From Candidatus Woesearchaeota archaeon (GTDB lineage: Archaea > Nanobdellota > Nanobdellia > SCGC-AAA011-G17 > ARS1403), in contig JAGVZI010000012.1 of assembly GCA_018302705.1 (NCBI GenBank), positions 332-64,331 of the forward strand: DNA of 64,000 nt, given 5' to 3'. The translations under genes and the position numbers were made by a program. The stretch's first letter is position 1. Every line of letters begins with the position of its first letter. Below the pieces are notes generated by a model, which ran no database searches, had not been told where the DNA came from, and saw nothing but the letters and a program-made list of their open reading frames with translations. This document shows, in pieces, positions 6,514 to 51,964 of this stretch.

Positions 6514-8011
6514 ATGAAAATCTCACTACTTTCAACTTCGACTTTCCCTGCAGACCAGGGTTTAAGGACTTTATCAGCTTGTTTAAAGAGAGAAGGCCAT
6601 GAAGTAAAGATGGTTTTCTTGACTCTGCCTGAAAAGGATTATTCTCAAATTTACAAAAAGTCAGTTTTAGACCAGGTAGACAAAGTAGTTGAAGGATCAG
6701 GATTAATAGGAATTACAGCAATGTCATCTACATCAACCAGGGCAAAGCAGCTAATAGAATATTACCAAAATAAAAAAATTCCAGTTGTTTGGGGAGGCGC
6801 AGCTCCCACATTCTTTCCTGAAAAATGCTTCCAATCCTGCAACATTGTAGCTGTTGGAGAGGCAGAAGAGGCATTATTGGAATTAGCATCTAAATTGGAA
6901 AAAGGAGAAGATATTGCAAAAGTAAAAAATCTTTACATCAGGATAAATGGAAAAGAATTCAGAAATCCTGTACGAATTAATTCTGGAAAAAGGAAAATTA
7001 ATACAGTTCCAGCCCAGGCACCTAGGAACAATTATTTATTTCCAGACAGAAAGGGGCTGTCCGCAGGCATGCTCTTACTGCACTAATAATATTTTAAGGG
7101 ATTTATACAAGGGAAAGTCGGATTTGCTAAGAACACATTCGGTTGATTACGTTATAGAAGAATTAAAAAGGTTGCATGAAAAATTCCCGCATATTGATGC
7201 ATTTGATTTAAGGGACGAAACTTTCACAATTAGAGATATTGCTTGGATTCGAGAATTTTCAGAAAAATACATCAAGTCAGGAATCGGCGTTAGATTAAAA
7301 TGTCTGGCAGAGCCAGCTTCGATGTCTGGAGAAAAAATCTCAAGAGAGAAAATAAAATTGCTTGTAGATGCAGGATTAACCGATATCATCGTCGGGATTC
7401 AATCAGGCTCTGACAGAGTTAATAAAGAAATATATAACAGGTTCATCACAAAAGACCAGTTGCTAAAGGCAGCCCAGACTTTAAATGAATTCAAAGGAAA
7501 GTTAACAGTCATGTATGATATTATAACCTGCAACCCATATGAAAACCCAGAGGATATTTTAGAAACAATCACATTAGTATTGCAAATCCCCCCGCCGTTT
7601 TATACTTCAGTAAATAATTTAATCTATTTTGAAGGAACTCCGTTATACAGAAGGGCATTAGCAGACGGGATAATCAGGCAGGAGTCAGACACAGCTGAAA
7701 TGTTAAACTACTGGGATAGATGGCAGCACATAAAATTAAAAAAGAAAAATCCTTATTTAAATCTTTTACTAAATTTAATGCGGGGACCCGCAACAAAATC
7801 AAGACTGGGATTAATGCCCCGTAGCTTTGTGAAGTCTCTAATAAAACCAAGAATTGTATCCTTTAATTTAAAGAACGAAGTTCCGACAAAAGCAATTGGA
7901 TCAATGGTTTCATTAATGGATTACTTCAGAGAGAATATCGCAAAACCAATTTACAGGTCAATGCCGATTGAGTTTAAAACCTGGTACGATCAGGTAAGGT
8001 ATAAGGCTTAA
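6514..8011 (+). pseudogene. B12-binding radical SAM protein interrupted by a +1 frameshift (ORFs 6514-7086 and 6947-8011 overlap)
   Basis: The N-terminal ORF is the B12-binding domain; the second ORF carries CPQACSYC (CxxxCxxC). By alignment to the paralog at 57410, the join lies near 6975-6995. Confidence 0.65.
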
Positions 8012-18351: not shown

Positions 18352-19293
18352 ATGGTAATATTAAGGAAAGTTAAAAGTAAGAATAAAGAATATTGGGTGC
18401 TAGTTCATTCTATAAGAGAAGGAAAGAAAATTATCCAAAGAACCAGATATATAGGAAAGAACCTTCCCCCGCCAAAAAGATTGGAGTATCTAAAAAAAGA
18501 GTTTCTTAAAGAAATAAAGGGAAACAGATACAAATACTTTTCATCTGAAGATATTGAAAGAATAGAGGGAAAAAAAGAAGAGTATAATAAAGAGATAAAT
18601 AAATTAAGCAAATTAGAAAAGAAGAAAAAATTAGAGGAGTTTATTGTTAGATATACATATGATAGTAGTAAATTATCAGGGCTTGATATTACTTTAAGAC
18701 AAACCTATCTGATTTTAGAGAAGGGGATTATCCCAAAAGGGTTTAAAAATCTAGTAATTATAAGGGAACTTGAAAATCATGAAAAGTGTATTATAGCCAT
18801 AACCAAATATAAGGGAAAGCTCGACCTCAGGTTTATCAAAAAAATGCACAATATTCTCTTTGTGGGTGTTGACGATAGTATTGCTGGAAAATTAAGATAC
18901 GAGATTAAGAGGGATGTTAAGATTGCCGGAACAGTTTATACTCCTCCTAAATGGCAGACTCTTAGAAAAGAGATGGATTATTTTTTCAAATGGTATGCAT
19001 CGGAAAACAGGAGATTACATCCATTAGAATTAGCAGCGTTAATCCATTTGAAGATAGCTTCCATACAGCCTTTTGTAGATGGAAATTCAAGATTGGCAAG
19101 ACTTTTAATGAACTGGATTTCAAGATTGGCAAGACTTTTAATGAACTGGATTCTATGGAAAAGGGAATATCCCCTAGTAGATATTCCGATAGAAGACTTA
19201 GAAAAATATTACGATGTGTTGGATCATTATCAAATAGAAAAAAATGAAAAGCCATTTATTAATTACATTAAAATAAAATATTTAGAAAAATAA
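18352..19293 (+). CDS. Fic/Doc-family protein with a degenerate motif (Gln in place of the catalytic His) and an 11-aa in-frame tandem duplication
   Basis: QPFVDGNSRLARLLMNWI-SRLARLLMNWI compared with the Fic consensus HPFx[DE]GNGRxxR. Confidence 0.6.
   Translation: MVILRKVKSKNKEYWVLVHSIREGKKIIQRTRYIGKNLPPPKRLEYLKKEFLKEIKGNRYKYFSSEDIERIEGKKEEYNKEINKLSKLEKKKKLEEFIVRYTYDSSKLSGLDITLRQTYLILEKGIIPKGFKNLVIIRELENHEKCIIAITKYKGKLDLRFIKKMHNILFVGVDDSIAGKLRYEIKRDVKIAGTVYTPPKWQTLRKEMDYFFKWYASENRRLHPLELAALIHLKIASIQPFVDGNSRLARLLMNWISRLARLLMNWILWKREYPLVDIPIEDLEKYYDVLDHYQIEKNEKPFINYIKIKYLEK
19088..19153 (+). repeat. Perfect 33-bp tandem duplication (two copies, 1 mismatch) inside the Fic ORF
   Basis: caagattggcaagacttttaatgaactggattt occurs twice in a row. 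Confidence 0.9.
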
Positions 19294-19380: not shown

Positions 19381-20661
19381 ATGATTAAAATAGGGATAAT
19401 TGGCGGGAGCGGTTTAGATAATCCAGAGCTTTTACAAGACTTTAAAGAAATTGAAGTCGATACAAAATATGGAAAGCCAAGCGATAAGTTAACAGTAGGT
19501 AAATTGGGAAATGCAGAAGTTGTCATCCTGCCAAGACATGGAAAGGGACACAAAATAACGCCGACAGGAGTTAATTACCGAGCCAATATACAAGCATTAA
19601 AAGATCAAAACGTAGATTATATTCTAGCAACAACAGCTTGTGGAAGCTTAAGAGAGGAAATTGGAAGAGGAGATTTTGTTATTCTTGATCAATTTATAGA
19701 TTTTACAAAACACAGAAAAATAAGTTTTCATGAGGATTTCAAAGATGGAATAAAGCACACTTCAATGGCAGCTCCTTTCGATGAAAAATTAAGAAAGATT
19801 TTAATTGAAATTTCTAAACAGCTAGGATTCAAAACACATGAAAAAGGGACAGTCATAACAATTGAAGGTCCAAGATTTTCAACAAGGGCAGAATCTCACA
19901 TGTTTAGGTCTTGGGGTGCAGATGTAATAAATATGTCAATAGCACCAGAATGTATCTTGGCGAATGAACTAAGTATTCCGTATGCAGCAATTGCAATGGT
20001 GACTGACTATGATTCATTTCTAGATGATCTCCCGCCTGTTACTTGGGAAGAAGTATTAAAAGTGTTCAATGAGAATGCTGAAAATGTAAAGAGATTATTA
20101 ATTGAAGCAATAAAAATATTAGGAGAAGAAAAATTTGATTTAAAACAGCACATCAGGACAGTCCCGCATTGGCCAAAACAAGGGGTAATGTTTAGGGATG
20201 TTACAACATTGTTGCAAGAGCCTAAGGCATTCAGTCACGTTATAGAAACTTTTTCTGAAAGATATAAAAATAAGAAAATAGACAAAGTTGTTGGCATAGA
20301 ATCTCGTGGTTTTATCTTCGGGTCGGCACTTGCGCATAAACTCAACCTCCCATTTATTCCAGTAAGAAAACCAAATAAACTTCCAGCTGAAACAGTATCT
20401 GAGGAATATGAATTAGAATATGGAAAAGACAAAGTTGAAATTCACAAAGATGCAATTAACGAAGGGGATAAAGTTTTGATTATAGACGACTTAATTGCAA
20501 CAGGAGGGACGGTGTTAGCAACTTGTAACTTGATCAAAAAGCTGCACGGAGAAGTTATTGAGTGTGGATTTATTATTGATTTGCCTGACCTAGGTGGAAA
20601 AAAGAAATTGCAAGAAGCTGGCTATAAGGTCTTTAATTTAGTAGAATTTGAAGGCGAATAA
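19381..20661 (+). CDS. Fusion of 5'-methylthioadenosine/purine nucleoside phosphorylase (N-terminal) and adenine phosphoribosyltransferase (C-terminal)
   Basis: MIKIGIIGGSGL...HMFRSWGADVINMS (PNP/MTAP family) then VVGIESRGFIFG...VLIIDDLIATGGT (PRTase type I). Confidence 0.8.
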   Translation: MIKIGIIGGSGLDNPELLQDFKEIEVDTKYGKPSDKLTVGKLGNAEVVILPRHGKGHKITPTGVNYRANIQALKDQNVDYILATTACGSLREEIGRGDFVILDQFIDFTKHRKISFHEDFKDGIKHTSMAAPFDEKLRKILIEISKQLGFKTHEKGTVITIEGPRFSTRAESHMFRSWGADVINMSIAPECILANELSIPYAAIAMVTDYDSFLDDLPPVTWEEVLKVFNENAENVKRLLIEAIKILGEEKFDLKQHIRTVPHWPKQGVMFRDVTTLLQEPKAFSHVIETFSERYKNKKIDKVVGIESRGFIFGSALAHKLNLPFIPVRKPNKLPAETVSEEYELEYGKDKVEIHKDAINEGDKVLIIDDLIATGGTVLATCNLIKKLHGEVIECGFIIDLPDLGGKKKLQEAGYKVFNLVEFEGE

Positions 20662-20698: not shown

Positions 20699-20793
20699 AG
20701 TCCCGTGGTGTAGCGGTCAAATTGATAAAAAATCAAGACTATGCATAGAGGCCTTTGGAGCCTTTGACGGAGGTTCGAATCCTCCCGGGACTA
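20699..20793 (+). tRNA. tRNA-Gln (anticodon UUG inferred), 95 nt, with an apparent ~22-nt intron at the D-loop/D-stem junction
   Basis: Acceptor AGTCCCG/CGGGACT, T-arm GGAGG-TTCGAAT-CCTCC, anticodon arm GAGGC-CTTTGGA-GCCTT, D-arm GTGT...GCAT split by ATTGATAAAAAATCAAGACTAT. Confidence 0.55.
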
Positions 20794-20810
20794 TTTATGG
20801 AAATAAAAAT

Positions 20811-21212
20811 ATGAAGTCTATTACTCAGAAACATTCAATGGGGTGCGGGATTGCTTGTGTGGCTTATATTGCAAGAAAAAAGTATGATGAGGTTTTAGAC
20901 CTTTTCGAAAAAGGATATGCCGAGACAAGAGGATACTATTGTAGAGATCTGGTAAATGCGCTCGATATGTTGGGATTAAAATATAGTTACAAAAAAGCTA
21001 CTGAAAAAAACAAAAGTTTAGTAAGGAAAGATGAGTCTATTATATTTATTAGGCGCTCCTCCAAGTATCCTGAGGGGCATTACATTGTTAAGACTAAAAT
21101 TGGCTGGATGAATCCATGGGTAAATTTTCCAGAATCAAATCCAATAAAATCAGGATTTAACAAAAGATTACATGGTCAGGCTCAATGGGTTTTATACAAA
21201 GGTAAAAAATGA
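20811..21212 (+). CDS. Papain-fold cysteine peptidase-like protein (C39-like)
   Basis: QKHSMGCGIACVAYI (Gln-Cys catalytic signature) and downstream GHYIV histidine. Confidence 0.4.
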   Translation: MKSITQKHSMGCGIACVAYIARKKYDEVLDLFEKGYAETRGYYCRDLVNALDMLGLKYSYKKATEKNKSLVRKDESIIFIRRSSKYPEGHYIVKTKIGWMNPWVNFPESNPIKSGFNKRLHGQAQWVLYKGKK

Positions 21213-21763
21213 ACAAGAAACATTTCATGTCAATCTTTATTGCATCTATTATGATACTTAGTGTTTTAGGAATTGCAATACAATATACTACTGGTAACTC
21301 TGAAAATATAAAGTTTCGAGGTCAGAAATTTAGTCCATATCAAGGGGGCTGGATAACATACAAGGATAATAAGCAGATAATAATCCCAACGCAGCCAGAT
21401 CTGCTCCAGTATCAGCAAGTTCCAGATATTGCTTTTGAAGATTTGAATAAGGCAGGTAAGATTTATTTTACCTCGAATCCAGATAATCAGCTTCCGCAGC
21501 AAGCGCTGTTTTCAATTCAGAATAACCTCTTTCCATACTTAAACAATGTTATAGTTGCTTGCATTGAAGACTCCCCAACATGCGCCAATCTCCCATTAAA
21601 AACATGCAGAGATGCATCTCAAGCAACGATAGTTATTCAAGCTCAAATAGATAAAACTCAAGAAACATCTTTCAATGACAACTGCCTTTTAATAAAGGGG
21701 CCAATGCAATTAATAACGCAGCAAGTTGATGCTTTAATACTAAATTTACACGGGATAAAATAA
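21209..21763 (+). CDS. Signal-anchored secreted/membrane protein (hypothetical)
   Basis: N-terminal hydrophobic helix FMSIFIASIMILSVLGIAI, then a soluble domain. Confidence 0.4.
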   Translation: MNKKHFMSIFIASIMILSVLGIAIQYTTGNSENIKFRGQKFSPYQGGWITYKDNKQIIIPTQPDLLQYQQVPDIAFEDLNKAGKIYFTSNPDNQLPQQALFSIQNNLFPYLNNVIVACIEDSPTCANLPLKTCRDASQATIVIQAQIDKTQETSFNDNCLLIKGPMQLITQQVDALILNLHGIK

Positions 21764-21766
21764 AAA

Positions 21767-22339
21767 ATGGAAGAAAGGACTTTGATGATTATAATTGCAG
21801 TAGTGTTAGTATTAGCAGCTCTATCTCCATTAGTCATAATAAAGAATCCAAATAAATATGATTACAACGATTTCAAAATAGAAAAAACCTCAACAGGATG
21901 GATGACATGGGCATATAAAGGCGAACAGCCGTATCAATTGCAGTTAAGGCATGATCCTAAGACCTTGGAAGATATCCTAGTGGATTCTGAGATCAGAGAA
22001 TTGGTTTTGTCAAAGCCGACGTTGGCAACAACTGTAGACCCAAATCTGACATCAAGGGCAGTTCTTGGAGCTATTGATATAGCAAACATTCTCGGAAGAA
22101 GATTGGGATTATATGGAATCCAAGTCATAGGTGCTACAACGGAGTTTGCAAACAACGGTACTTATGTTATCAATTGTAGCGATGTCCAGGAAAATTTGAA
22201 TGTAGCAGTTTTGAAATTAGGAGAAGAAACAAAAGTCTATTTGGAAGATAGCTGCATTATTTTGCAAGGCGAGACAGAAGAAGACATTAACCGGGCAGCA
22301 GATCGTTTTATTTACCATATATTAACTGTCATGCCTTAG
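21767..22339 (+). CDS. Signal-anchored secreted/membrane protein (hypothetical; same architecture as the upstream gene)
   Basis: N-terminal TM MIIIAVVLVLAALSPLVII. Confidence 0.4.
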   Translation: MEERTLMIIIAVVLVLAALSPLVIIKNPNKYDYNDFKIEKTSTGWMTWAYKGEQPYQLQLRHDPKTLEDILVDSEIRELVLSKPTLATTVDPNLTSRAVLGAIDIANILGRRLGLYGIQVIGATTEFANNGTYVINCSDVQENLNVAVLKLGEETKVYLEDSCIILQGETEEDINRAADRFIYHILTVMP

Positions 22340-23116
22340 ATATTCAATCCCCTTTTCAAAAGGTGTAGGGTTAAATCCGAAATCTTTTTTTATCTCATTA
22401 ATGTTGCAAGTTTTATCCTGCAGCAAATTTTTATCAATAAATCTAACAGCGAAATTTGGAATATTTATTCTGATCGCTTTCTTTGATAAGGCTCTGCATA
22501 TTTTGTCGACGATTTCATTAAAGCTCAAAATCTCACCGCCAACGAAGTAAGTTTTATTCTTTTCTTTGGATTTTATTATATTAGCTATTAAATCTACGAG
22601 GTCCCCAACGAATAATGGCTGTAGCTTCATATCTCCGTTTCCAGGAATAACCGCAATGGAATATTTCTTAATCATCTTTATAAGCATTTCAAGGTCTTTA
22701 TTGTTTCCCCGGCCATAGATAACCGTTGGTCTTAATATAGTATAATTTAATCCTGAATCTCGGACATAGTTTTCAGCAGATTTTTTGGATCTCCCATATC
22801 TTGTTTCTAAGATGGCATCATACGAGCTGATAAAAATGAATTTTTTAACATTGTTTACTACGCAGGCCTCAATCAGGTTTTTGGTTCCAAGAGAGTTTAC
22901 TTCCATGACATTGCCTTTAGTAATTCCTGCAAGGTGGACAACGACGTCAACTTTGCTTGCTTCCAGCAATAGGTCTTTATCAAATAAGTCTCCAAGGTAA
23001 ACATTTTTTCTATCAAATTTTTTCCTGCTCAATATTCTCACATCATAACCTTTATCGAGTACATTAAGGAGATTCCTACCAACAAATCCGGTAGCGCCAG
23101 TAATTAAGATTTTCAT
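22322..23116 (-). CDS. NAD-dependent epimerase/dehydratase (short SDR)
   Basis: MKILITGATGFVGRNLL Rossmann GxxGxxG. Confidence 0.75.
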   Translation of the reverse strand: MKILITGATGFVGRNLLNVLDKGYDVRILSRKKFDRKNVYLGDLFDKDLLLEASKVDVVVHLAGITKGNVMEVNSLGTKNLIEACVVNNVKKFIFISSYDAILETRYGRSKKSAENYVRDSGLNYTILRPTVIYGRGNNKDLEMLIKMIKKYSIAVIPGNGDMKLQPLFVGDLVDLIANIIKSKEKNKTYFVGGEILSFNEIVDKICRALSKKAIRINIPNFAVRFIDKNLLQDKTCNINEIKKDFGFNPTPFEKGIEYLRHDS

Positions 23117-24420
23117 GTGAAAAAAGTTTTTGTGAAATATTTATAAAAATATCTGGGTCTTAAATAATAGCCAACAAGGGCTTTCTGCTGGTATCTCATT
23201 ATTTTTTCCTCGCTTAAGTTGGGGTGATCAAATATTACATGGAAATTGTCATATAGGTCATAATTCTCTGTTTTTATCCTGTCTTTTATCGCATCATAAA
23301 ATTCAGTTCCTGGAATGGGGGTGCCTATTGTGAAGTTGGCAAAATCAGTATTTAACTTTTTAGAATATTTTAAAGTAGCCTTGATAGTTTCTTCAGTGTC
23401 ATTCTCCAAACCGATTACATAGAATCCGACAACCTTCATTCCAATCTTGTCGCAATGCCTAATCATTTTTTCCTGATGCTCTAAAGCTATAGGAAGCCTT
23501 TTACTTTTCCTTAAAACTTCAAGGTCAGCAGATTCAATCCCAACCTTTATAACGCGAAATCCAGCTTTATACATCAAGTCCAATAAATTTTCATCAACCC
23601 TGTCAAGTCTTGTCTCGCAACCTAGCTCGATATCTATTTTTTCTTTAATTATTTGATTGCATAACTCTTCAGTCCTTTTCCTTATCAGAGTAAACATTGG
23701 GTCTCTAAACTGGGCGCCTTTAACATTAAATTTCTCTTTAAGATACTTCAGCTCCCCCATCACATTCTCCACGCTTCTCATCCTGTATTTGCTTCCTAAG
23801 TTAGATTCAGAAATATAAGGACAGTAATTGCATCCGTAAGTGCATCCCCTGCTAGACAAAATAAAAGTAAATGGTTTCTTTGTAATTATTGGCTCGTAAG
23901 AGAATTTCTCAATTGGAAAAAGATCCCAGTCAGGATAAGGTAGGCCATCTAGGTTAGAAACAGGAGAGCTAATTAATCCTTTAGGAATATCCCTTTTATC
24001 TATTATCCTTCCAAGTACGGTTTCGACATCACCCTTTATAATAAATTCCGCTTCCCCAAAAAGTTCAGGTTTCATTGCAGGAAAAGGTCCAACCATTCCA
24101 ACCTTGATTCCTTTCTCTTTCAGATTTTTTAAAGCTATTAATTCATTGCTATGATTTGGCATGCTACCGTGCATTACAACCAGGTCAGCATCATCAACAG
24201 AATTAGAAATAGAAACATCATGCCCGTTTTCTTTCATTATAGTCGCACCATATGCATATGGTATATATGGAAAATATTCTCTATTAGTTCTCAAACCAGT
24301 CAATAATCTTGCAAAAAACCCCCTACCAGCATTGAAGCTTGTTCCATATCCTCCATTGTAGTCTCTATAAATCTTTTTGTCAGATTTAACATCCAAAAAT
24401 ACAACTTTCATACATAGCAA
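23113..24420 (-). CDS. B12-binding radical SAM protein
   Basis: N-terminal B12-binding module; SSRGCTYGCNYCPY (CxxxCxxC). Confidence 0.8.
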   Translation of the reverse strand: MLCMKVVFLDVKSDKKIYRDYNGGYGTSFNAGRGFFARLLTGLRTNREYFPYIPYAYGATIMKENGHDVSISNSVDDADLVVMHGSMPNHSNELIALKNLKEKGIKVGMVGPFPAMKPELFGEAEFIIKGDVETVLGRIIDKRDIPKGLISSPVSNLDGLPYPDWDLFPIEKFSYEPIITKKPFTFILSSRGCTYGCNYCPYISESNLGSKYRMRSVENVMGELKYLKEKFNVKGAQFRDPMFTLIRKRTEELCNQIIKEKIDIELGCETRLDRVDENLLDLMYKAGFRVIKVGIESADLEVLRKSKRLPIALEHQEKMIRHCDKIGMKVVGFYVIGLENDTEETIKATLKYSKKLNTDFANFTIGTPIPGTEFYDAIKDRIKTENYDLYDNFHVIFDHPNLSEEKIMRYQQKALVGYYLRPRYFYKYFTKTFFT

Positions 24421-24463
24421 AAAATTTAATTATCTTTTTAAGTCTTTTTAACATTGGAGATAT

Positions 24464-25010
24464 ATGCAACAGAAGATACTGGTGGGGTGCCCAACCTCAT
24501 TCCACAAAGAATACTGCTTGAAAGAATATGCTGAGGCAATTAATAAATTAACATATAAAAATCATGATGTTCTTTTAGTAGACAATTCTCCAGAAGGGGA
24601 TTATTCTGTAAAAATTAATGGGTTAGGTATGCCGACGGTAAAAGGCCCATATTTTGAGTCGGCAAGAGACTGCAAACAATATTATCCCGGGAGAGGTCTC
24701 TTCTAAATTAATTCCTTTAGTTTATGTTTTAGAGGATCAAAAAACAATTTCAATGAGGTCGTTAAATGAAGATGAGCTATGGAAAAATCAAGGTTTAATG
24801 CAGGTCATTTCAGCAGGACTCGGATGCATTCTTATCCACAAAAATATTTTAAAAAAAATTAAATTTCGATACGAACTGAATACATTTGATGACCGTTGGT
24901 TCTTCATGGATTTATACAATAAGAAGATTCCAGTATATGCAGATACTTCGATAAAATGCAAACATTTAATTTACAATCGGCCTTACCCATGGAGCAAGAT
25001 TAAAAAATGA
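24464..25010 (+). pseudogene. Degenerate, frameshifted member of the GT-A-like paralog family
   Basis: The N-terminus KILVGCPTSFHKEYCLKEY...LLVDNS and the C-terminus SAGLGCILIHKNIL...YADTSIKCKHLI are in different frames (ORFs 24464-24706 and 24654-25010); the middle has diverged. Confidence 0.55.
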
Positions 25011-25693
25011 AAAAGATTTTAGTAGGCTGCCCGACATCAAGCTATCATGAATATGCTTTGGAAGAATATGCAAGAGCAGTAAAGTCATTAACTTATCCTA
25101 ACTATGATATCTTATTAGTCGACAATTCTAAAGATGATTTGTATTTTAAAAAATTAAAGTTATTAAATTTGCCGACGATAAAAGGCCGATGGCATGAAGA
25201 AGCGAGAGAGAGAATTGTGGAGTCAAGAAATATCCTAAGGCAGAAAGTTATCGACGATGATTATGATTATTTTCTCTCATTGGAGCAGGATGTTATCCCC
25301 CCAAAAGATATAATAGAAAGGTTGTTGCAGCACAAGAAGCGCGTTATAAATGGAGTTTATTTCAATTATATAAATGCAAAGGAAGGAACAAGACTGGCTC
25401 CTGTAATATGGACAAAAGTAAATATGAAGAAAGAAGAAAGATATTTCCTGCATCCATCACAATTAAATAAAGGGCTGATGAAGATAGCCATTTCTGGAGT
25501 TGGCTGTATCTTGATACACAGATCGGTTTTGGAAAAAATAAAGTTCAGATATGAAAAACAATATCCATCATTCGATGATATCTTCTTCGGGTTGGATTGC
25601 AAGGAAAATAATATAGGCATTTATGCAGATACAAACATCGTTTGCAAGCATTTAATCAAAAACAGGCCTTGGAGCTGGAAAAATCTAAAATAA
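25007..25693 (+). CDS. GT-A-fold glycosyltransferase-like protein (paralog family, copy 2)
   Basis: KILVGCPTS...LLVDNS, LEQDVIPP (DxD-like), GVGCILIHRSVLEKIKFRY, DDIFFGLD, YADTNIVCKHLIKNRPWSW. Confidence 0.6.
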   Translation: MKKILVGCPTSSYHEYALEEYARAVKSLTYPNYDILLVDNSKDDLYFKKLKLLNLPTIKGRWHEEARERIVESRNILRQKVIDDDYDYFLSLEQDVIPPKDIIERLLQHKKRVINGVYFNYINAKEGTRLAPVIWTKVNMKKEERYFLHPSQLNKGLMKIAISGVGCILIHRSVLEKIKFRYEKQYPSFDDIFFGLDCKENNIGIYADTNIVCKHLIKNRPWSWKNLK

Positions 25694-25697
25694 AAAA

Positions 25698-26468
25698 ATG
25701 AAAAAAATTCTCGTCGGCAGTCCAGTAAATGAAATGTACGAATATTGCATTAAAGAATATACGGATGCAATCACATCCTTATCATATAAAAATTATGATA
25801 TCCTGCTAGTCGACAATTCAAAAACAGATGCATTCTATAAAAAATTAAAATCGATGAAAATAAAGGTAATTCGAGGGAAATACTTTGAAGAGCCAAGGGA
25901 TAGAATGATAGACGGCAGGAATATCCTAAGAGAGAAAGCAATAAATGAAAACTATGATTTTTTCATGAATATCGATCAGGACGTCATTCCTCCAAGAGAT
26001 ATAATCGAGCGCTTTTTGCAGCATAAGAAGCGCGTTATAACTGGCATTTACTTCAACTACAGGAAATTCACCCCGAGAAAATTAGGTTCAAAAGAAGGAG
26101 AAAGATACGGGGGTCTATTCCCCACTGTCTGGAGATTTACAAACAAAAAAGATGTAATTAGGCAGTTAAGGGAAGATGAATTAACCGGGCAGTTAGTTCA
26201 AATAGCTTCATCTGGTTCAGGCTGTTTGTTTATCCACAATTCAGTTCTAAAAAAAATAAATTTTCATTATTCAAAAGATAATGATAAACCTGAGAAAAAT
26301 TACTTTGTTTTTGATGACGCTTATTTCTGCAAAGACTTGATGGAATTAAAAATACCGGTATATGCAGACACATCAATGATATGCAGGCACTTAATAAAGG
26401 AGAAGGGTTGGACATGGTCAGATTATTATTCCAAAAATCAGAATAGAAAACAGAACAATAATATTTAA
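25698..26468 (+). CDS. GT-A-fold glycosyltransferase-like protein (paralog family, copy 3)
   Basis: Same conserved blocks: KILVGSPV, LLVDNSK, IDQDVIPP, GSGCLFIHNSVLKKINFHY, YADTSMICRHLIKEKGW. Confidence 0.6.
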   Translation: MKKILVGSPVNEMYEYCIKEYTDAITSLSYKNYDILLVDNSKTDAFYKKLKSMKIKVIRGKYFEEPRDRMIDGRNILREKAINENYDFFMNIDQDVIPPRDIIERFLQHKKRVITGIYFNYRKFTPRKLGSKEGERYGGLFPTVWRFTNKKDVIRQLREDELTGQLVQIASSGSGCLFIHNSVLKKINFHYSKDNDKPEKNYFVFDDAYFCKDLMELKIPVYADTSMICRHLIKEKGWTWSDYYSKNQNRKQNNNI

Positions 26469-26493
26469 ATACCTAATTCTCTTACTAAATAAT

Positions 26494-26748
26494 ATGCCAA
26501 AAGAAATACTAGTTGGAGAAGTAATTAGCTTTTACAGCCATATTGATGTAATAGCAATCCAGCTTTCAGCTCCGTTGAAAATAGGGGACAAAATTCATGT
26601 AAAAGGGGCTACAACAGACTTCACTCAGAAAGTAGATTCAATGCAAATAGAGCATAAAAAAGTTTTATCTGCAAAGAAAGGGGATTCTGTTGGAATTAAG
26701 ATAAAAGACAAGGCAAGAAAAAACGATAAGGTTTATAAAGCCGAATAA
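26494..26748 (+). CDS. Small beta-barrel protein (EF-Tu domain-2-like; hypothetical)
   Basis: 84 aa with alternating hydrophobic pattern and a GDKIHVKG motif. Confidence 0.3.
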   Translation: MPKEILVGEVISFYSHIDVIAIQLSAPLKIGDKIHVKGATTDFTQKVDSMQIEHKKVLSAKKGDSVGIKIKDKARKNDKVYKAE

Positions 26749-26838
26749 TCGCAGTCTTTTCAAGATAGGTCAGTGAAAGCTTGCCTATGCTGGATGTTTT
26801 CTGGTTTTGGTAAAGCTTTTTTTAAAAAATAAAGTAAA

Positions 26839-27294
26839 ATGGCAAGAATGCATTCAAGAAAGAAGGGTAAATCCTCAAGTAAAAAACCTTTAACTACTAG
26901 CAAGATTACCTGGCAGAGGTATGATAAAAATGAAATAGTGCAATTAATAATCAAGTTGGCCAAATCGCAAAAATCGCCGTCTCAAATAGGCATAACATTA
27001 AGAGATTCATACGGGATTCCAAATATCTCACAATTAACAGGGAAATCAATAACGCAGATATTATCAGAGGAGAAGCTGCTTCCAAAGCTCCCTGAGGATT
27101 TGCTGAGCTTAATAAAGAGGTATGTAAAGATAACAAAGCATTTGCAGTTGAATAAAAAAGACCAGCCATCAAAGAGGGGATTGCAGTTGACAGAGTCAAA
27201 GATAAAAAGGCTGGCAAAATATTATAAAAAGGCAGATAAAATCCCGGAAGATTGGAGATTCTCAAGAGAGCAAGCATCTCTTTTAATTGAATGA
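26839..27294 (+). CDS. rps15: Ribosomal protein S15 (uS15, archaeal S13e type)
   Basis: MARMHSRKKGKSSSKKP N-terminus and a C-terminal helical S15 fold; a TATA-like tttttaaaaaataaa lies about 25 nt upstream (leaderless). Confidence 0.9.
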   Translation: MARMHSRKKGKSSSKKPLTTSKITWQRYDKNEIVQLIIKLAKSQKSPSQIGITLRDSYGIPNISQLTGKSITQILSEEKLLPKLPEDLLSLIKRYVKITKHLQLNKKDQPSKRGLQLTESKIKRLAKYYKKADKIPEDWRFSREQASLLIE

Positions 27295-28658
27295 TGATGC
27301 AGTTGTTTCTTGAAAAGATAAGGCAGGAAGCTGAAAAATTAAAAGCATCTGATAGTCCTATAAGGGTAGTTTCTCATTTGGATGCAGATGGGCTATCCTC
27401 AGCAGCAATATTAACCAAGGCTTTAAAGAGGCTAAATAAAAAATTTGCATTGACGATTGTAAAGCAGCTTTCTCCAAATATATTATCTCAATTCAAGGCC
27501 GAATCTTATGAAACCTTTTTATTTGTTGATCTAGGCTCGGGGAATCTCGAGGATATAAAGGGGGTTATAAATGTTAAAAAAATTATCATACTAGATCACC
27601 ATCAGCCGCAGCAGATTGAAAACTCTTTTATTCATTTAAACCCGATATCATTCGGATTAGATGGCAACAGAGATGTTTCAGGAGCAGGCCTGGCTTATTT
27701 ATTTGCAAAATCCCTCGATGAGAAAAACAAAGATCTAGCTCCGCTAGCTTTAGTTGGTGCAATTGGAGACAATCAGGAGGATAAAGGGTTCTCTGGAATT
27801 AACAATCTTATCTTGGAGGATGCAAAGCCATATTTGGAAATAATCACCGGATTGAGAATGTTCGGAACTCAAACGAAGCCATTATCAAAAATATTGCAGT
27901 ACTCAACAGACCCTTACATACCAGGCATAACAGGGGACGAGCAGGCATCAAGAGAATTTTTACAAGAGCTAAATTTGGATCCGGAAAAAAAATTAATCCA
28001 TCTAGATCACGAGGAGATGAAAAAGCTAGTTACATTTATAATATTGCAGAGGCTTGGCTCGGAGGAAAACCCGGATGATGTCCTCGGCCCGATCTATCTC
28101 TTAAAATCAGAGCCGGAAGAATCGCCTACCAAGGATTTAAGGGAGTTCTCAACATTGTTGAATTCATGCGGCAGACTGAACAAGCCGTCATTGGGGATAG
28201 CAGCTTGCATGCAAGATAATAAGTTAAAACATGCAGCAATAAGTCTTTTGAATGAATATAAAAGGGAATTGATAGCATCATTAAACTGGTTTTACAATAG
28301 CAAGGAGAAAATAACAGAGCTAGAGGGATTGGTTATAATAAATGCAGAGGACAATGTAAAAGATACAATAATAGGGACTTTAACTTCAATGATAGCAAAA
28401 TCCAACCTCTATCAAGAGAACACCATCCTGATTTCATTAGCACATTCATTAGATGAAAATACAAAGATATCAATCCGCTGCTCAGGCTATAAAAACTCAG
28501 GTATTAATTTAAAAGAGGTCTTGAATTCAATAACCTCAAAGCTAGGGTGTCAGGCAGGCGGGCATAGAAATGCAGCAGGCGCTTTAATACCTCAGGAAAA
28601 AGAAGAGGAGTTTATCGAGCTGGCAAAGACCTTAAATGGGAAAACAATAATTTTATAA
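27291..28658 (+). CDS. DHH-family phosphoesterase (archaeal RecJ/GAN/Cdc45-like)
   Basis: VVSHLDADGLSSAAIL (DHH motif I), LDHHQP, and GGHRNAAG near the C-terminus. Confidence 0.75.
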   Translation: MMMQLFLEKIRQEAEKLKASDSPIRVVSHLDADGLSSAAILTKALKRLNKKFALTIVKQLSPNILSQFKAESYETFLFVDLGSGNLEDIKGVINVKKIIILDHHQPQQIENSFIHLNPISFGLDGNRDVSGAGLAYLFAKSLDEKNKDLAPLALVGAIGDNQEDKGFSGINNLILEDAKPYLEIITGLRMFGTQTKPLSKILQYSTDPYIPGITGDEQASREFLQELNLDPEKKLIHLDHEEMKKLVTFIILQRLGSEENPDDVLGPIYLLKSEPEESPTKDLREFSTLLNSCGRLNKPSLGIAACMQDNKLKHAAISLLNEYKRELIASLNWFYNSKEKITELEGLVIINAEDNVKDTIIGTLTSMIAKSNLYQENTILISLAHSLDENTKISIRCSGYKNSGINLKEVLNSITSKLGCQAGGHRNAAGALIPQEKEEEFIELAKTLNGKTIIL

Positions 28659-28682
28659 ACAAATTTTAGGCTTTAAAAAGGA

Positions 28683-29243
28683 ATGGCAAAGCAGGAAATA
28701 AAAGGAAAGAAAAAGCATTGGTATTCAATACTGCCGACATCAAATTTCAGAATACAGGAGATAGGCGAGACATTAACAGCAGATCCTTCCAGATTAATTG
28801 GAAAAACAGTTGCAGTGAATGGAATGGACCTAATGCGCGACCCAAAAAAGCAGAATATAAAGGTAACCTTCAGGATAACAGAGATTAAAGATAATAAGGC
28901 ATTGACAGAGATCAAGTCTTATCAAGTCCTGCCAAGCTCGATTAAAAGAATGGCGCATCAGGAAAAAGACAAGATAGATCATAGTTTTAAACTCGAAACA
29001 AAAGATAATATTGCAGTAGTAGCAAAGCCGGTCATTATCACAAGGGCAAAAACATCCCGGGCTGTTTTATCAAAAATAAGAAGGAACTCAGAGGAATTTT
29101 TAAGAGCAGCAATTAAAAGGCAGAGTTACCAAGAAGCAATTAATTCTTTATTGGAAGCAAAGCTGCAATCGCAATTGCGGGAGCATTTAAAAAAAATATA
29201 CCCGATTGCGGTCTGCCATATCAGAATATTCGAGAAGAGATAA
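28683..29243 (+). CDS. rps3ae: Ribosomal protein S3Ae (eS1)
   Basis: MAKQEIKGKKKHWYSILPTSNFRIQEIGETL is a typical S3Ae N-terminus. Confidence 0.9.
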   Translation: MAKQEIKGKKKHWYSILPTSNFRIQEIGETLTADPSRLIGKTVAVNGMDLMRDPKKQNIKVTFRITEIKDNKALTEIKSYQVLPSSIKRMAHQEKDKIDHSFKLETKDNIAVVAKPVIITRAKTSRAVLSKIRRNSEEFLRAAIKRQSYQEAINSLLEAKLQSQLREHLKKIYPIAVCHIRIFEKR

Positions 29244-29336
29244 TTATTTTTAAAGTAAATAACATGTTATTTTTTTATTGCCTCAATTGTCCATATGGCA
29301 GTAAGATTTATATACTATTAAAAGTCTTACTCTCTT

Positions 29337-30119
29337 ATGAGAATTAAATTTAAAAAAGGAAAACAGAGATGGTTAATGGAAAAAGCAATTAAAAAAGCTG
29401 GTTCAGAAAGAAAACTTAAAAAGATATTAAAAATACCTAATCAAACTGTAAATCACTATAGAACTGAATATGTTAATATCTCCAAAAAAAGACTTGATTT
29501 GATTATTAATTTCTTAGGAATAAAGATTAATGATGTAGATAAATTAATAGAAAAAAAATTAGATGAAAACTGGGGAAGACATAAAGGAGGTAGAGATCTT
29601 ATCCAAAAACATAAATCAAAAGGAACATATGAGATATATATTAAACATTTACAAAAAAGAGGGAAAATAATCTTTACCCAAATGCACAAAAACATGAAGA
29701 AAAAAGACCCGGAAAATTACTATAGAATACAATATGAAAAATTCAAAAAAGTAGGTCGATATAAATTTATCACAAAAAGAGGCGAGAAGGTTAGAAATAA
29801 ACTTGAAAAAGATACAGCAGATTTACTAAACTTTTTGAAATTAAAATACTCTTATGAGCCCTACATTGTTGCAAACAAAAGAGTTTATTTTCCTGATTTT
29901 AAGGTTGGGAAATTAATCTTAGAATGTACTGCATGGAGGGGATATTTAAAAGTTAGAAAATTAAAAAGAAAATTAAAAGATTTTGAAAAAGAGGGATTTA
30001 ATGTTAGATTTATAATTCCAGAAGATATAAAAAAGTTTTATAAACCGTTTGAAGATAAGATAATTACAGGTTTAAAAGAAGCCTCAGTAGCTCAGACTAT
30101 CCGAGGATTATCTCGATAG
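29337..30119 (+). CDS. HTH-containing protein with a C-terminal nuclease-like domain; its last ~13 codons overlap tRNA-Thr and are probably read-through
   Basis: ERKLKKILKIPNQTVNHYR helix-turn-helix; C-terminal YFPDFKVGKLILECTAW block; the ORF runs into the tRNA acceptor stem at 30081. Confidence 0.4.
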   Translation: MRIKFKKGKQRWLMEKAIKKAGSERKLKKILKIPNQTVNHYRTEYVNISKKRLDLIINFLGIKINDVDKLIEKKLDENWGRHKGGRDLIQKHKSKGTYEIYIKHLQKRGKIIFTQMHKNMKKKDPENYYRIQYEKFKKVGRYKFITKRGEKVRNKLEKDTADLLNFLKLKYSYEPYIVANKRVYFPDFKVGKLILECTAWRGYLKVRKLKRKLKDFEKEGFNVRFIIPEDIKKFYKPFEDKIITGLKEASVAQTIRGLSR

Positions 30120-30182
30120 GAGAGATGGTAGAGCAATTGCCTTGTAAGCAATAGGCCGGGGGTTCAAATCCCTCCTGAGGCT
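30081..30182 (+). tRNA. tRNA-Thr (anticodon UGU), 102 nt, with an apparent ~30-nt intron inside the D-loop
   Basis: Acceptor GCCTCAG/CTGAGGC, D-stem GCTC...GAGC with loop AG[ACTATCCGAGGATTATCTCGATAGGAGAGA]TGGTA, anticodon arm ATTGC-CTTGTAA-GCAAT, T-arm GGGGG-TTCAAAT-CCCTC; the inserted segment forms a hairpin CTATCCGAG/CTCGATAG. Confidence 0.6.
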
Positions 30183-32444: not shown

Positions 32445-32517
32445 GGGTCCGTGGTCTAGTGGCTATGACGTCTCCTTGACGTGGAGGAATTCGGCAGTTC
32501 GAATCTGCCCGGACCCA
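32445..32517 (+). tRNA. tRNA-Val (anticodon GAC), intronless
   Basis: Acceptor GGGTCCG/CGGACCC, anticodon arm TCTCC-TTGACGT-GGAGG, T-arm GGCAG-TTCGAAT-CTGCC, discriminator A. Confidence 0.85.
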
Positions 32518-50521: not shown

Positions 50522-51964
50522 TTATTGAGAAATTACAGTTACTGCTGCAGAAGCCAATTCCCTGAATTCTCTAAAAGATCTTACCTTAGAAATCATCTTG
50601 AAAACATAACTAGGTCTTAAGTAGAAGCTCCTATAAGCTTTTTTCAGCCATTCATCTAGCTCCTTGCTGGATAGTTTACATCCGGGGACTCTTATCTCAT
50701 CACTCTCAGTAGTCTTTCCTACAGTGAAATCTTTCCAGTAATCTCTTCCAATCTCATCTATGACATCATCGTACAAAGGTGTGCCAGCAATTGGAGTTAA
50801 TTTATTGATCTGCACATAATCCAAGTCTAAGCTTTTAGCAAATTCAATAGTCTCTTTTACAGACTCTTCCGTTTCTCCTGGAAATCCAATAATAAAGAAA
50901 CCGAAAGGAGACATGCCTGCTTCCTGTGTCCATTTAACAGCCTGCTCAATTTTCTCTCGTGGCATATATCTCTTCATTTTATGTAAAATCTCTTCATTAG
51001 CAGATTCAATGCCGTAGTTAACTCTCACACATCCTGCTTTCGCAATTAATTGTAGCAATTCTTTATTCACGCAGTCTGCTCTAGTTCTAATGCTGAATGT
51101 AAGTCTTTTATTTAACCCTCTTCTTATGATTTCATTGCAAATCTTTTCAGCTCTAGGTTGATTTATTGTAAATGTCTCGTCATAGAATATAATCTCTTTT
51201 ATTCCATATTTATCAGCACATTCCTCCATCTCATCTACTACATCCTTGTAATCCCTATAAAAAGCAGTCTTGTCTGTGCTGCAATATGTACACTTGTAAG
51301 GGCAACCAGTAGCAGTTAGCATAGTGCTTACAGGCCTTCTTTTAGAAATCAATGTAGAATATCTCTCATTGGGCAGCAAATCCCTGGCAGGATGAGGTAT
51401 GCCTTTCCAATAATCAGTTCTTCTAGGTCTTGGAGCTGTTATTATAATTTTACCTTCTCTGTCTTTATATCCAATGCCTTTAACTTTGCTCAAGTCTTTT
51501 TTACTCTTAAGGGATTCCATCAGCTCAGGCAAGGTCTCCCAAGCTTCTCCAATTACAATATAATCAACAACATTGTACATCTCTAAAGTTTCTTTAGGAT
51601 ATGACAAGGTATGCGGTCCGCCAAGAATCATTTTAATGTTTAGCTTTGACTTGATATACTCCATCCATTCAACAGTTATCTTCAAGCTCGCAGTAATAAC
51701 TCCAAACATCAAAAAATCAGGATTGTGCTCTTTTATCTTTTCAATCATCTCTTCTTTTGTATAATGGATAGCATAGCCGTCGATTATTCCAACCTCGTAT
51801 CCTCTATTTCTCATGTAAGCAGCCAAATAAGCAACACCTAGAGGAGGAAGAACAACGCCTTTCTTGGAGTAAAGTTTATGAATCTTCTTAGTATAATACA
51901 ATCTCTGCATTTGTTGAGGTGGTTGTATAAATAAAATCTTCATATTATCTCCAAAAGTTAACAA
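50522..51964 (-). CDS. B12-binding radical SAM protein
   Basis: N-terminal B12-binding module; TATGCPYKCTYCS. Confidence 0.8.
   Translation of the reverse strand: MLTFGDNMKILFIQPPQQMQRLYYTKKIHKLYSKKGVVLPPLGVAYLAAYMRNRGYEVGIIDGYAIHYTKEEMIEKIKEHNPDFLMFGVITASLKITVEWMEYIKSKLNIKMILGGPHTLSYPKETLEMYNVVDYIVIGEAWETLPELMESLKSKKDLSKVKGIGYKDREGKIIITAPRPRRTDYWKGIPHPARDLLPNERYSTLISKRRPVSTMLTATGCPYKCTYCSTDKTAFYRDYKDVVDEMEECADKYGIKEIIFYDETFTINQPRAEKICNEIIRRGLNKRLTFSIRTRADCVNKELLQLIAKAGCVRVNYGIESANEEILHKMKRYMPREKIEQAVKWTQEAGMSPFGFFIIGFPGETEESVKETIEFAKSLDLDYVQINKLTPIAGTPLYDDVIDEIGRDYWKDFTVGKTTESDEIRVPGCKLSSKELDEWLKKAYRSFYLRPSYVFKMISKVRSFREFRELASAAVTVISQ

Follow-up and report, generated by a model that had tools for sequence, protein, structure and literature searches.

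Introns at non-canonical positions of archaeal transfer RNA (tRNA) genes, including D-arm sites, and introns with relaxed bulge-helix-bulge (BHB) splice motifs have been described in Crenarchaeota, Nanoarchaeota, ARMAN, and Methanopyrus kandleri, and the HBh' form is accepted as a member type of archaeal BHB introns (PMC4090602, PMC5829648). A survey of DPANN archaea that includes a Woesearchaeota genome reports that an alpha4-type splicing endonuclease (EndA) with an 'L3' loop accompanies increased tRNA gene disruption (Kaneta et al. 2018, PMC5829648), and in vitro cleavage by a broad-specificity EndA is reported for an HBh' intron in the D-loop of M. kandleri tRNA-Glu(UUC) (PMC5829648). Here we analyze a 64,000-nucleotide (nt) stretch of a Candidatus Woesearchaeota archaeon (positions 332 to 64,331 of contig JAGVZI010000012.1, assembly GCA_018302705.1; hereafter the window), in which the genes for tRNA-Gln(UUG) and tRNA-Thr(UGU) carry extra sequence in the D-loop. 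We conclude that both inserts are very probably protein-spliced introns of the BHB type, at the non-canonical D-loop sites 15/16 (Thr) and 21/22 (Gln). Because non-canonical introns of DPANN archaea have already been described, they belong to a known kind. An earlier note on this DNA had interpreted the inserts in the same way, and it was broadly right to place such positions chiefly in Thermoproteales and a few reduced lineages, of which DPANN is one.

Among other described systems that come close to this locus are those of collaborative homing in phages, which pair F-CphI with the psbA intron of cyanophage S-PM2 (PMC6083498) and mobE with I-TevIII in T4 (PMC2790892). The most interesting lead from the window is a conserved nuclease-like open reading frame (ORF), here called ORF-260, that ends in the tRNA-Thr gene and co-occurs with its D-loop intron, which hints at a way in which such introns might spread.

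The host is a Woesearchaeota (DPANN) archaeon. The window has a GC content of about 33% and encodes the archaeal ribosomal proteins S3Ae and S15, an archaeal Cdc45/RecJ-like protein, and SRP54/FtsY, together with numerous glycosyltransferases and radical-SAM enzymes. The closest matches of its S3Ae are Candidatus Woesearchaeota metagenome-assembled genomes (MAGs) at 72–81% identity, and near-identical contigs of the window are present in several public metagenome assemblies. Loci of relatives (L numbers) were retrieved with S3Ae and with the gene that precedes tRNA-Gln, which encodes a phosphorylase–phosphoribosyltransferase fusion; the S3Ae scan of metagenomes gave at least six loci. One of the contigs, L007, is an independent contig of the same strain.

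Two tRNA Genes Restored by Excision

The tRNA-Gln(UUG) gene spans 20699–20793 and scores 54.7 bits with the Rfam tRNA model, which reports a 25-nt insertion in the D-loop. ARAGORN overlooked this gene in the window until 22 nt (20721–20742) were excised, after which it returned a tRNA of 73 nt with anticodon UUG. The insert follows A21, at the junction of D-loop and D-stem. At the same locus tRNA-Gln is intron-less in L003, L029, and L030; the L003 gene has the D-arm GUGUAGCGGUCAAGCAU, and its first 28 nt are those of the spliced window tRNA-Gln. Other relatives carry a different intron in this gene, 17 nt long and at site 37/38, with no intron in the D-loop (L001 and L033). Boxes like the TATA-like box upstream of tRNA-Gln are found at tRNA-Val, with the same spacing, and at the tRNA-Gln genes of relatives, and we infer that this box acts as the tRNA-Gln promoter. 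An intron of the canonical 37/38 type for the Gln region, as proposed by ARAGORN in intron mode, gives an implausible tRNA-Ile(GAU), its D-arm mispaired, and is overruled by the Rfam alignment and the genes of relatives.

For tRNA-Thr(UGU), both ARAGORN and Rfam call just 30110–30182, with an Rfam score of 33 bits and non-pairs in the acceptor and D stems. This call leaves four acceptor pairs mismatched and arises because the tools take intron sequence for the 5' half of the gene; the true 5' exon starts 29 nt further upstream, so that the gene extends over 30081–30182. The acceptor strand GCCUCAG of this exon pairs perfectly with CUGAGGC at 30175–30181. Once 30096–30125 is removed, the D-arm reads GCUC-AGUGGUA-GAGC with perfect pairing and ARAGORN returns a clean tRNA-Thr. 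The insert separates G15 from U16, ahead of G18G19 in the 5' part of the D-loop. In relatives tRNA-Thr(UGU) lies about 40 nt after S3Ae, and the genes of L013 and L004 carry an uninterrupted GCCUCAGUAGCUCAGUGGUAGAGC at the D-arm. The L013 gene has no D-loop intron and its first 32 nt equal those of the spliced window tRNA-Thr, while the spliced window tRNA as a whole is 100% identical to that of L020.

These results agree with the earlier note on the extra 22 and 30 nt in the D-loops of otherwise canonical tRNAs, and the insert boundaries that it had bracketed are exact for both genes, as the intron-less genes at the same loci in relatives confirm. Contrary to the note, the two inserts do not sit at the same place. 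Its statement that tRNA-Val lacks an insert is correct (Table 1; 59.1 bits with Rfam). Before excision ARAGORN finds two tRNAs only in the window, the shortened tRNA-Thr and tRNA-Val, and a more permissive Rfam scan of the window (E <= 5) found no further tRNAs.

Both genes are thus mishandled by standard tRNA finders: ARAGORN misses tRNA-Gln and truncates tRNA-Thr, and Rfam assigns a false 5' half to tRNA-Thr. Since standard finders mis-call such genes, DPANN genomes annotated with them would appear to lack essential tRNAs.

Splice-Site Geometry and Covariation

The splice sites were compared with a single geometry rule, in which four paired nucleotides (Ha) precede a bulge of two exon nt and one intron nt, an inner helix, the four partners of Ha (Hb), and finally two intron nt and one exon nt. 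In canonical introns the first two anticodon nucleotides lie within the central 4-bp helix (PMC4090602), and this fixes the register of the rule. Ten introns satisfy it (eight Thr D-loop introns, the window Gln intron, and an intron in the tRNA-Val of L019), each with 3–4 of 4 bp in the central helix, and in all ten the 3' site lies two nt past this helix. In the window Gln intron the central helix is GGUC/GACU (4/4 bp), the 5' bulge AA/A with the slash at the cut, the inner helix UUGAU/AUCAA, and the 3' site AU/G. In the window Thr intron the central helix is GCUC/GAGA (3/4 bp), the 5' bulge AG/A, the inner helix CUAUC(C)GAG/CUCGAUAG, and the 3' site GA/U; the Thr central helix reaches 4/4 bp in L019, L020, and L027. 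The outer exon-exon helix is absent, so the motif is the relaxed HBh' form. Among random window segments of the same length, 0.5% fit the geometry by chance for Thr and 1% for Gln. Local minimum-free-energy folds of short segments yield the central helix, the 3-nt bulge, and the hairpin.

An alignment of the Thr introns points to the same structure. Of the cells compared, 93.8% are paired, against about 50% with the partners slid by 1–3 columns. Double (compensatory) changes occur in 6 of the 10 pairs, and the covariation score was reached by none of 500 shuffles. In all the Thr introns the D-stem partner GAG is unchanged, and the hairpin varies with compensation. An alternative 3' register for Thr, in which GAG at 30120–30122 would form the central helix, as it does in the local minimum-free-energy fold, was set aside, as all relatives place the helix right after the inner hairpin and the intron-less D-loop is AGUGGUA. 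No group I or group II intron or other Rfam family matched the inserts, either at the gathering threshold or at E <= 5.

These motifs fit the need for an endonuclease tolerant of relaxed BHB structures. In the proposed precursor, the four exon nt upstream of the 5' site (GCUC from the D-stem in Thr, GGUC from the D-loop in Gln) would pair with the four intron nt upstream of the 3' site. The 5' cut would fall within the 3-nt bulge, which is followed by the intron-internal hairpin, and the 3' cut would fall two nt past the central helix, with no outer helix to close it. With both sites cut by EndA, an RNA ligase would join the exons into a normal D-arm. We infer the cleavage, the ligation, and the tolerance of the host EndA for relaxed motifs.

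The Gln intron, at its 3' end (UCAAGACUAU), has the 7-mer AGACUAU in common with the exon-intron junction of Thr (UCAG/ACUAU, 30093–30100), in a differing register. The sequence is short and its recurrence may be due to chance.

Intron, Enlarged D-loop, or Pseudogene

The intron interpretation is supported by the match of the excised tRNAs to intron-less relatives, by the geometry of the junctions, and by the covariation of the Thr inner helix. Several observations weigh against it. The outer exon-exon helix has 0 bp in every intron, so the strict hBHBh' form does not occur; in the full-length Thr precursor the BHB conformer lies about 7 kcal/mol above the minimum-free-energy fold, which retains the D-stem and pairs ACUAUC with GAUGGU; and the minimum-free-energy fold of Gln places the 3' splice site at a helix edge without a clean bulge. 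No EndA (PF01974, PF02778) was found among the 70 window ORFs of at least 90 amino acids that were scanned, and tblastn with the Methanocaldococcus jannaschii EndA, a query checked against PDB entry 1a79, gave no match in the window or in 39 related loci (~200 kb). Furthermore, the Gln D-loop intron is present in the window and L007 alone among the loci compared, so this intron was seen in one strain and is without comparative support of its own.

It is very unlikely that the inserts are instead retained, giving mature tRNAs with an enlarged D-loop and an additional hairpin. Each insert folds into a stable hairpin that could stick out of the D-loop, but the partners with which the inserts pair, the D-stem in Thr and G18G19 in Gln, are elements on which the tRNA core depends, and the same tRNAs occur without the insert in close relatives. 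Retention would also leave the endonuclease geometry, obeyed at a chance level of 0.5–1%, as a coincidence and the conserved GAG that mimics a D-stem strand without a role. Even more improbable is that both genes are pseudogenes disrupted by insertions, with functional copies elsewhere in the genome. Their poor handling by ARAGORN and Rfam, and the fact that the visible part of the genome is 64 kb, speak for this, but their exons are intact, the promoter-like boxes are kept, the spliced tRNA-Thr has the identical counterpart in L020 described above, and the Thr intron and its structure are kept with compensatory changes in relatives at 35–47% S3Ae identity. Small DPANN genomes usually have one gene per tRNA species, which we also count against a pseudogene. 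Of these explanations, spliced introns at 15/16 and 21/22 best account for the observations.

Turnover of Introns in Related Genes

An intron at 15/16 of tRNA-Thr, similar in length to that of the window, occurs in seven other sequences (L014, L019, L020/L021, L022, L025, L026, and L027/L028). Some of these genes contain additional introns, at 37/38 in L014, L019, and L027 and at both 37/38 and the T-loop in L022. The tRNA-Thr of L005 is intron-less, that of L004 has a 13-nt intron at 37/38, and those of L001, L003, L006, L015, and L016 have a 14-nt intron at 27/28. The position of introns turns over fast among close relatives, with the same tRNA genes carrying an intron at 27/28, at 37/38, or none. 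The locus is therefore a compact comparative series, in which one tRNA gene has its intron at 15/16, 27/28, or 37/38, has several, or has none, and which documents fast intron turnover outside Thermoproteales.

The tRNA-Thr(UGU) genes with the 27/28 intron belong to relatives without ORF-260 (L001:10596–10681, L015:1317–1401, L016:3596–3682, L006:129–214, and the end of L003). In this intron a GCUC mimics the 5' strand of the D-stem and pairs with GAGC at positions 22–25; there is nearly no inner helix, which gives a motif like a bulge-helix-loop. Further non-canonical introns were observed in the tRNA-Thr of L022 (after 3740; three introns in one gene), the tRNA-Val of L019 (after 3880; D-loop) and of L020 (after 3810; T-loop), and the tRNA-Asn(GUU) of L038 (after 2240; 8/9 and 30/31), all of which give clean tRNAs once the introns are excised.

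A Nuclease-Like ORF Ending in tRNA-Thr

ORF-260 is a real gene, with the NCBI entry 'hypothetical protein J4443_02535 [Candidatus Woesearchaeota archaeon]'. Its 67 homologues are about 260 amino acids long and 33–75% identical, and no Pfam or NCBIfam family matched it. The earlier note had described it as a helix-turn-helix plus putative nuclease-like domain, and the structure prediction bears this out: the AlphaFold2 model (pLDDT 90) consists of an N-terminal helix-turn-helix of the Xre type and a C-terminal PD-(D/E)xK nuclease domain. Foldseek matches the model to the homing endonuclease I-Bth0305I (3r3p; E 2.5e-3, TM-score 0.67 relative to the target), and further fold matches include Bax1 and the R2 and T7 endonucleases. 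Among viral proteins the fold matches are to endonuclease I, Vsr-like, and homing endonucleases, with E-values down to 5.7e-8 that are modest overall, and the PHROG label for the relation is 'endonuclease'. The residues E174, D187 (in FPD187F), and E196 are invariant in the family and fit a nuclease active site.

EndA structures are absent from the fold matches, so ORF-260 was rejected as a relative of EndA, and family and fold searches found no recombinase or integrase domain in the protein. The combination that marks a tRNA-targeting integrative element, a direct repeat of tRNA sequence plus an integrase, is not present for ORF-260. Searches of phage records and IMG/VR contigs gave no match to ORF-260 relatives on viruses.

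The ORF ends at a TAG (30117–30119) that is the UAG of the intron hairpin, and its last 13 codons consist of the tRNA-Thr 5' exon (coding ASVAQ) and 24 nt of the intron. The earlier note had the ORF reading about 39 nt into the 5' exon; the overlap with the gene is indeed 39 nt, but just 15 nt of it is exon. Homologues in L019, L020, L022, L025–L028, and L034 likewise read in frame into tRNA-Thr, and many family members have a C-terminus of the form ...ASVA(Q). More distant members, 41% identical to ORF-260, read into tRNAs with multiple introns, namely tRNA-Asn(GUU) in L038 and a similar tRNA in L035.

Within the ORF, the box TTTTATAAA lies 36 nt upstream of tRNA-Thr and codes the conserved FYK. 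Its DNA is conserved at all loci that carry the ORF, including those of the members at 41% identity. L014 is a deletion derivative in which the last ~90 nt of the ORF are left, with the TTTTATAAA box among them. The box is a candidate internal promoter for tRNA-Thr.

Upstream of ORF-260, a second, degenerate tRNA-like segment sits at the distance from a TATA-like box at which the tRNA begins in relatives without the ORF. The box, TTTTTAAAG, is probably the ancestral tRNA-Thr promoter, because its spacing matches that of tRNA-Gln and tRNA-Val. The resemblance of the window segment to the tRNA is not significant (866 of 2000 shuffles), nor is that of the segments in L022 and L027. In four relatives an element at the same position is significant: L035, identical at 15 of 15 positions (0 of 2000 shuffles), L025 (4 of 2000), L038 (13 of 2000), and L020 (27 of 2000). 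The remnants of the window and L019 are closer to each other than to their own tRNAs and share derived changes. An inverted repeat, AGTAAGA-N18-TCTTACT (29300–29331), lies between the remnant and the start of ORF-260 and overlaps a TATA-like box (Table 1).

Table 1. Coordinates of features of the tRNA-Gln and tRNA-Thr regions and of tRNA-Val in the window
Feature	Position	Strand	Basis or remark
TATA-like box TTTTTAAAA	20667..20675	+	23 nt upstream of tRNA-Gln; read from sequence
tRNA-Gln(UUG) 5' exon, positions 1–21	20699..20720	+	Rfam, ARAGORN after excision, L003 match
22-nt putative intron AUUGAUAAAAAAUCAAGACUAU, site 21/22 of tRNA-Gln	20721..20742	+	relaxed BHB geometry
tRNA-Gln 3' exon, positions 22–73, CCA not encoded	20743..20793	+	Rfam, sequence, ARAGORN after excision
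TATA-like box TTTTTAAAG	29247..29255	+	24 nt upstream of tRNA-like remnant; read from sequence
Degenerate intron-less copy of tRNA 5' part GCCTCAATTGTCCATATGGCAG	29280..29301	+	position upstream of ORF-260
TATA-like box after remnant, before ORF-260	29305..29314	+	read from sequence
ORF-260, helix-turn-helix plus PD-(D/E)xK nuclease-like	29337..30119	+	homologues, AlphaFold2, fold matches
TTTTATAAA box within ORF-260, coding conserved FYK	30036..30044	+	36 nt upstream of tRNA-Thr
tRNA-Thr(UGU) 5' exon, positions 1–15	30081..30095	+	acceptor pairing, ARAGORN after excision, L013 and L004 match
30-nt putative intron ACUAUCCGAGGAUUAUCUCGAUAGGAGAGA, site 15/16 of tRNA-Thr	30096..30125	+	relaxed BHB geometry, relatives, covariation
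tRNA-Thr 3' exon, positions 16–73	30126..30182	+	ARAGORN, Rfam, ARAGORN after excision
tRNA-Val(GAC), intron-less comparison gene	32445..32517	+	Rfam 59.1 bits, ARAGORN

Mobility or Vertical Inheritance of ORF-260

The distribution of ORF-260 was judged from 11 loci and a single marker tree. L013 and L001, the closest relatives, with S3Ae 78–80% identical to that of the window, lack the ORF, which is present at the same site in the distant L019 and L022 (S3Ae at 47% and 35%). Between the window and L019 or L022, ORF-260 is 75% or 58% identical, S15 70% or 52%, GAN (the RecJ/Cdc45-like protein) 61% or 33%, and S3Ae 47% or 35%; these flanking genes lie at 26839–29243 in the window. The 15/16 intron is found at 8 of 10 distinct loci that carry the ORF and at none of the 8 that lack it (Fisher p = 0.001, uncorrected for phylogeny). 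The exceptions among the ORF-carrying loci are L034, which has no D-loop intron, and L038, which has its intron at 8/9. The nuclease fold, the patchy presence, the decaying copy, and the fixed site, taken together, recall the life cycle of homing endonuclease genes; the evidence for such a cycle is circumstantial.

One explanation, plausible though short of probable, is that ORF-260 is an ordinary accessory gene of the host, inherited vertically and abutting tRNA-Thr in the compact genomes of DPANN archaea. The co-occurrence of ORF and intron would then reflect shared ancestry with repeated loss, and the overlap would arise since the tRNA provides the first in-frame stop. The order S15-GAN-S3Ae-ORF-tRNA-Thr is kept in the window, L019, and L022, in agreement with vertical descent, as are the ORF without a D-loop intron in L034 and the derived changes common to the remnants of the window and L019. 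Without the intron the D-loop would also provide a stop in frame (CAG UGG UAG), and the intron is therefore not required for the ORF to overlap the tRNA. Against simple inheritance, the ORF is more alike between distant genomes than the three flanking housekeeping genes, the closest relatives lack it and L014 has lost part of it, and a nuclease fold beside a duplicated tRNA 5' part is typical of mobile DNA.

Alternatively, the Thr intron could be spliced and at the same time be part of, or hitch-hike with, a mobile cassette containing the nuclease gene, as in collaborative homing; we regard this as possible, if on the unlikely side. ORF-260 would in that case be a free-standing endonuclease of the homing type lodged in the tRNA-Thr gene, and the cassette would bring along a promoter of its own together with the ORF, a new 5' exon in place of the old one, and the short intron, with the 5' part of the resident tRNA remaining upstream as a decaying remnant. 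The intron would split the D-arm target of the nuclease, so that carriers would be protected and the intron copied along with the ORF. A helix-turn-helix joined to a predicted PD-(D/E)xK fold like that of I-Bth0305I, endonuclease I, Vsr-type, and homing endonucleases is what such a cassette would encode. The same holds for the patchy presence (absent in L013 and L001, present in L019 and L022), the conservation of the ORF above that of S15, GAN, and S3Ae, the deletion derivative in L014, the upstream remnant that is significant in four relatives, the co-occurrence with the 15/16 intron, and the likewise placement of distant family members on tRNA-Asn, and the concept has precedent in phages (PMC6083498, PMC2790892). 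On the other hand, L034 has the ORF and no D-loop intron, the remnant is not significant in the window, L022, or L027, and its likeness between the window and L019 fits common descent and not fresh homing. Relatives of ORF-260 were not found on viral contigs or in phage records, and purifying selection on a host function could explain the high conservation of the ORF.

A broader and more doubtful proposal is that the ORF-260 family comprises undescribed homing-type nucleases of DPANN archaea that target tRNA genes. Members would insert in the 5' third of the tRNA gene with a replacement 5' exon and promoter; a short protein-spliced intron, physically coupled to them, would divide the likely target in the D-arm and would spread by co-conversion. 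Should mobility underlie the association of the ORF with the 15/16 intron, the gain of short protein-spliced tRNA introns becomes directly testable. The homing explanation, if true, would be the first concrete mechanism at the DNA level for the gain and movement of short BHB tRNA introns, for which a review of these introns calls the mechanism unknown (PMC4090602).

A second family of nuclease genes is positioned like ORF-260 relative to a tRNA gene. In L029 (1701–2408) an ORF for a LAGLIDADG-type endonuclease occupies precisely the space from the tRNA-Gln promoter to an intron-less tRNA-Gln, into which it extends 17 nt, with the UAG of the D-loop as its stop. A search for a tRNA-Gln 5' remnant upstream of this ORF gave a 6-mer match only, which is not significant. 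Together with the strain-specific Gln intron of the window, the L029 ORF would fit the broader proposal above and suggests a picture of nuclease genes besieging tRNA genes, with introns as protection.

Other Observations in the Window

The tRNA-Gln region is flanked by genes for a Fic/DOC-domain protein (18352–19293) and a small peptidase-C39-like protein (20811–21212), the latter missing beside tRNA-Gln in L030 and L033. Between the Fic/DOC gene and tRNA-Gln, a 426-residue fusion of methylthioadenosine-phosphorylase-like and phosphoribosyltransferase domains (19381–20661) is very widespread, with more than 7,800 database proteins at E <= 1e-60. Elsewhere (6514–8011), a B12-binding ORF (6514–7086) and a radical-SAM ORF (6947–8011) overlap by 140 nt and have the appearance of a single B12-dependent radical-SAM gene that a frameshift has broken in two; paralogues in which the fusion is intact are found at 50522–51964, 57410–58906, and 60789–62207.

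Comparison with Known Systems

As in Thermoproteales, Nanoarchaeota, ARMAN, and M. kandleri, the proposed introns are short, protein-spliced, and outside 37/38, with sites in the D-arm. They share the relaxed motif, in which one bulge is intact, exon and intron form a central helix of 4 bp, and the intron contains a hairpin (PMC5829648, PMC4090602), as well as the occurrence of several introns per gene in relatives and the speed at which introns are gained, lost, and shifted in position among related genomes. Unlike those hosts, the host here is a mesophilic, low-GC Woesearchaeota MAG, and 15/16 and 21/22 are not among the sites given in the excerpted text of the review (20/21, 22/23, 25/26, and others; PMC4090602). 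The survey of Kaneta et al. (2018) covers the same superphylum with counts at the level of genomes, and its excerpted text makes no mention of this locus, the Thr 15/16 intron, or the overlapping nuclease ORF (PMC5829648).

The locus also recalls the BHB introns of archaeal ribosomal RNA genes that encode LAGLIDADG proteins, as in the 16S rRNA of Thermoproteales (PMC4496867), in its combination of a BHB-type intron with a nuclease-like gene and in its patchy distribution. Unlike in those introns, the nuclease gene here lies upstream and outside of the intron and ends within it, the predicted fold is PD-(D/E)xK and not LAGLIDADG, and the intron is 30 nt long.

Integrative elements duplicate part of a tRNA gene at their att sites, and endonuclease ORFs that replace the end of a gene leave the old end as a remnant, as at fungal mitochondrial atp6. 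Similarly, ORF-260 has beside it a putative partial duplicate of the tRNA 5' part, and the functional gene would have been rebuilt from the copy beside the ORF. Unlike integrative elements of tRNA genes, the segment here is less than 1 kb, has no integrase, and duplicates the 5' and not the 3' end of the tRNA.

Finally, the locus shares with collaborative homing a free-standing nuclease gene, in this case a predicted one, beside an intron-containing gene, an intron at the expected cut site, and the co-occurrence of the two. In the phage systems the introns are self-splicing group I introns in protein genes, whereas the intron here would be spliced by proteins and interrupts a cellular tRNA gene.

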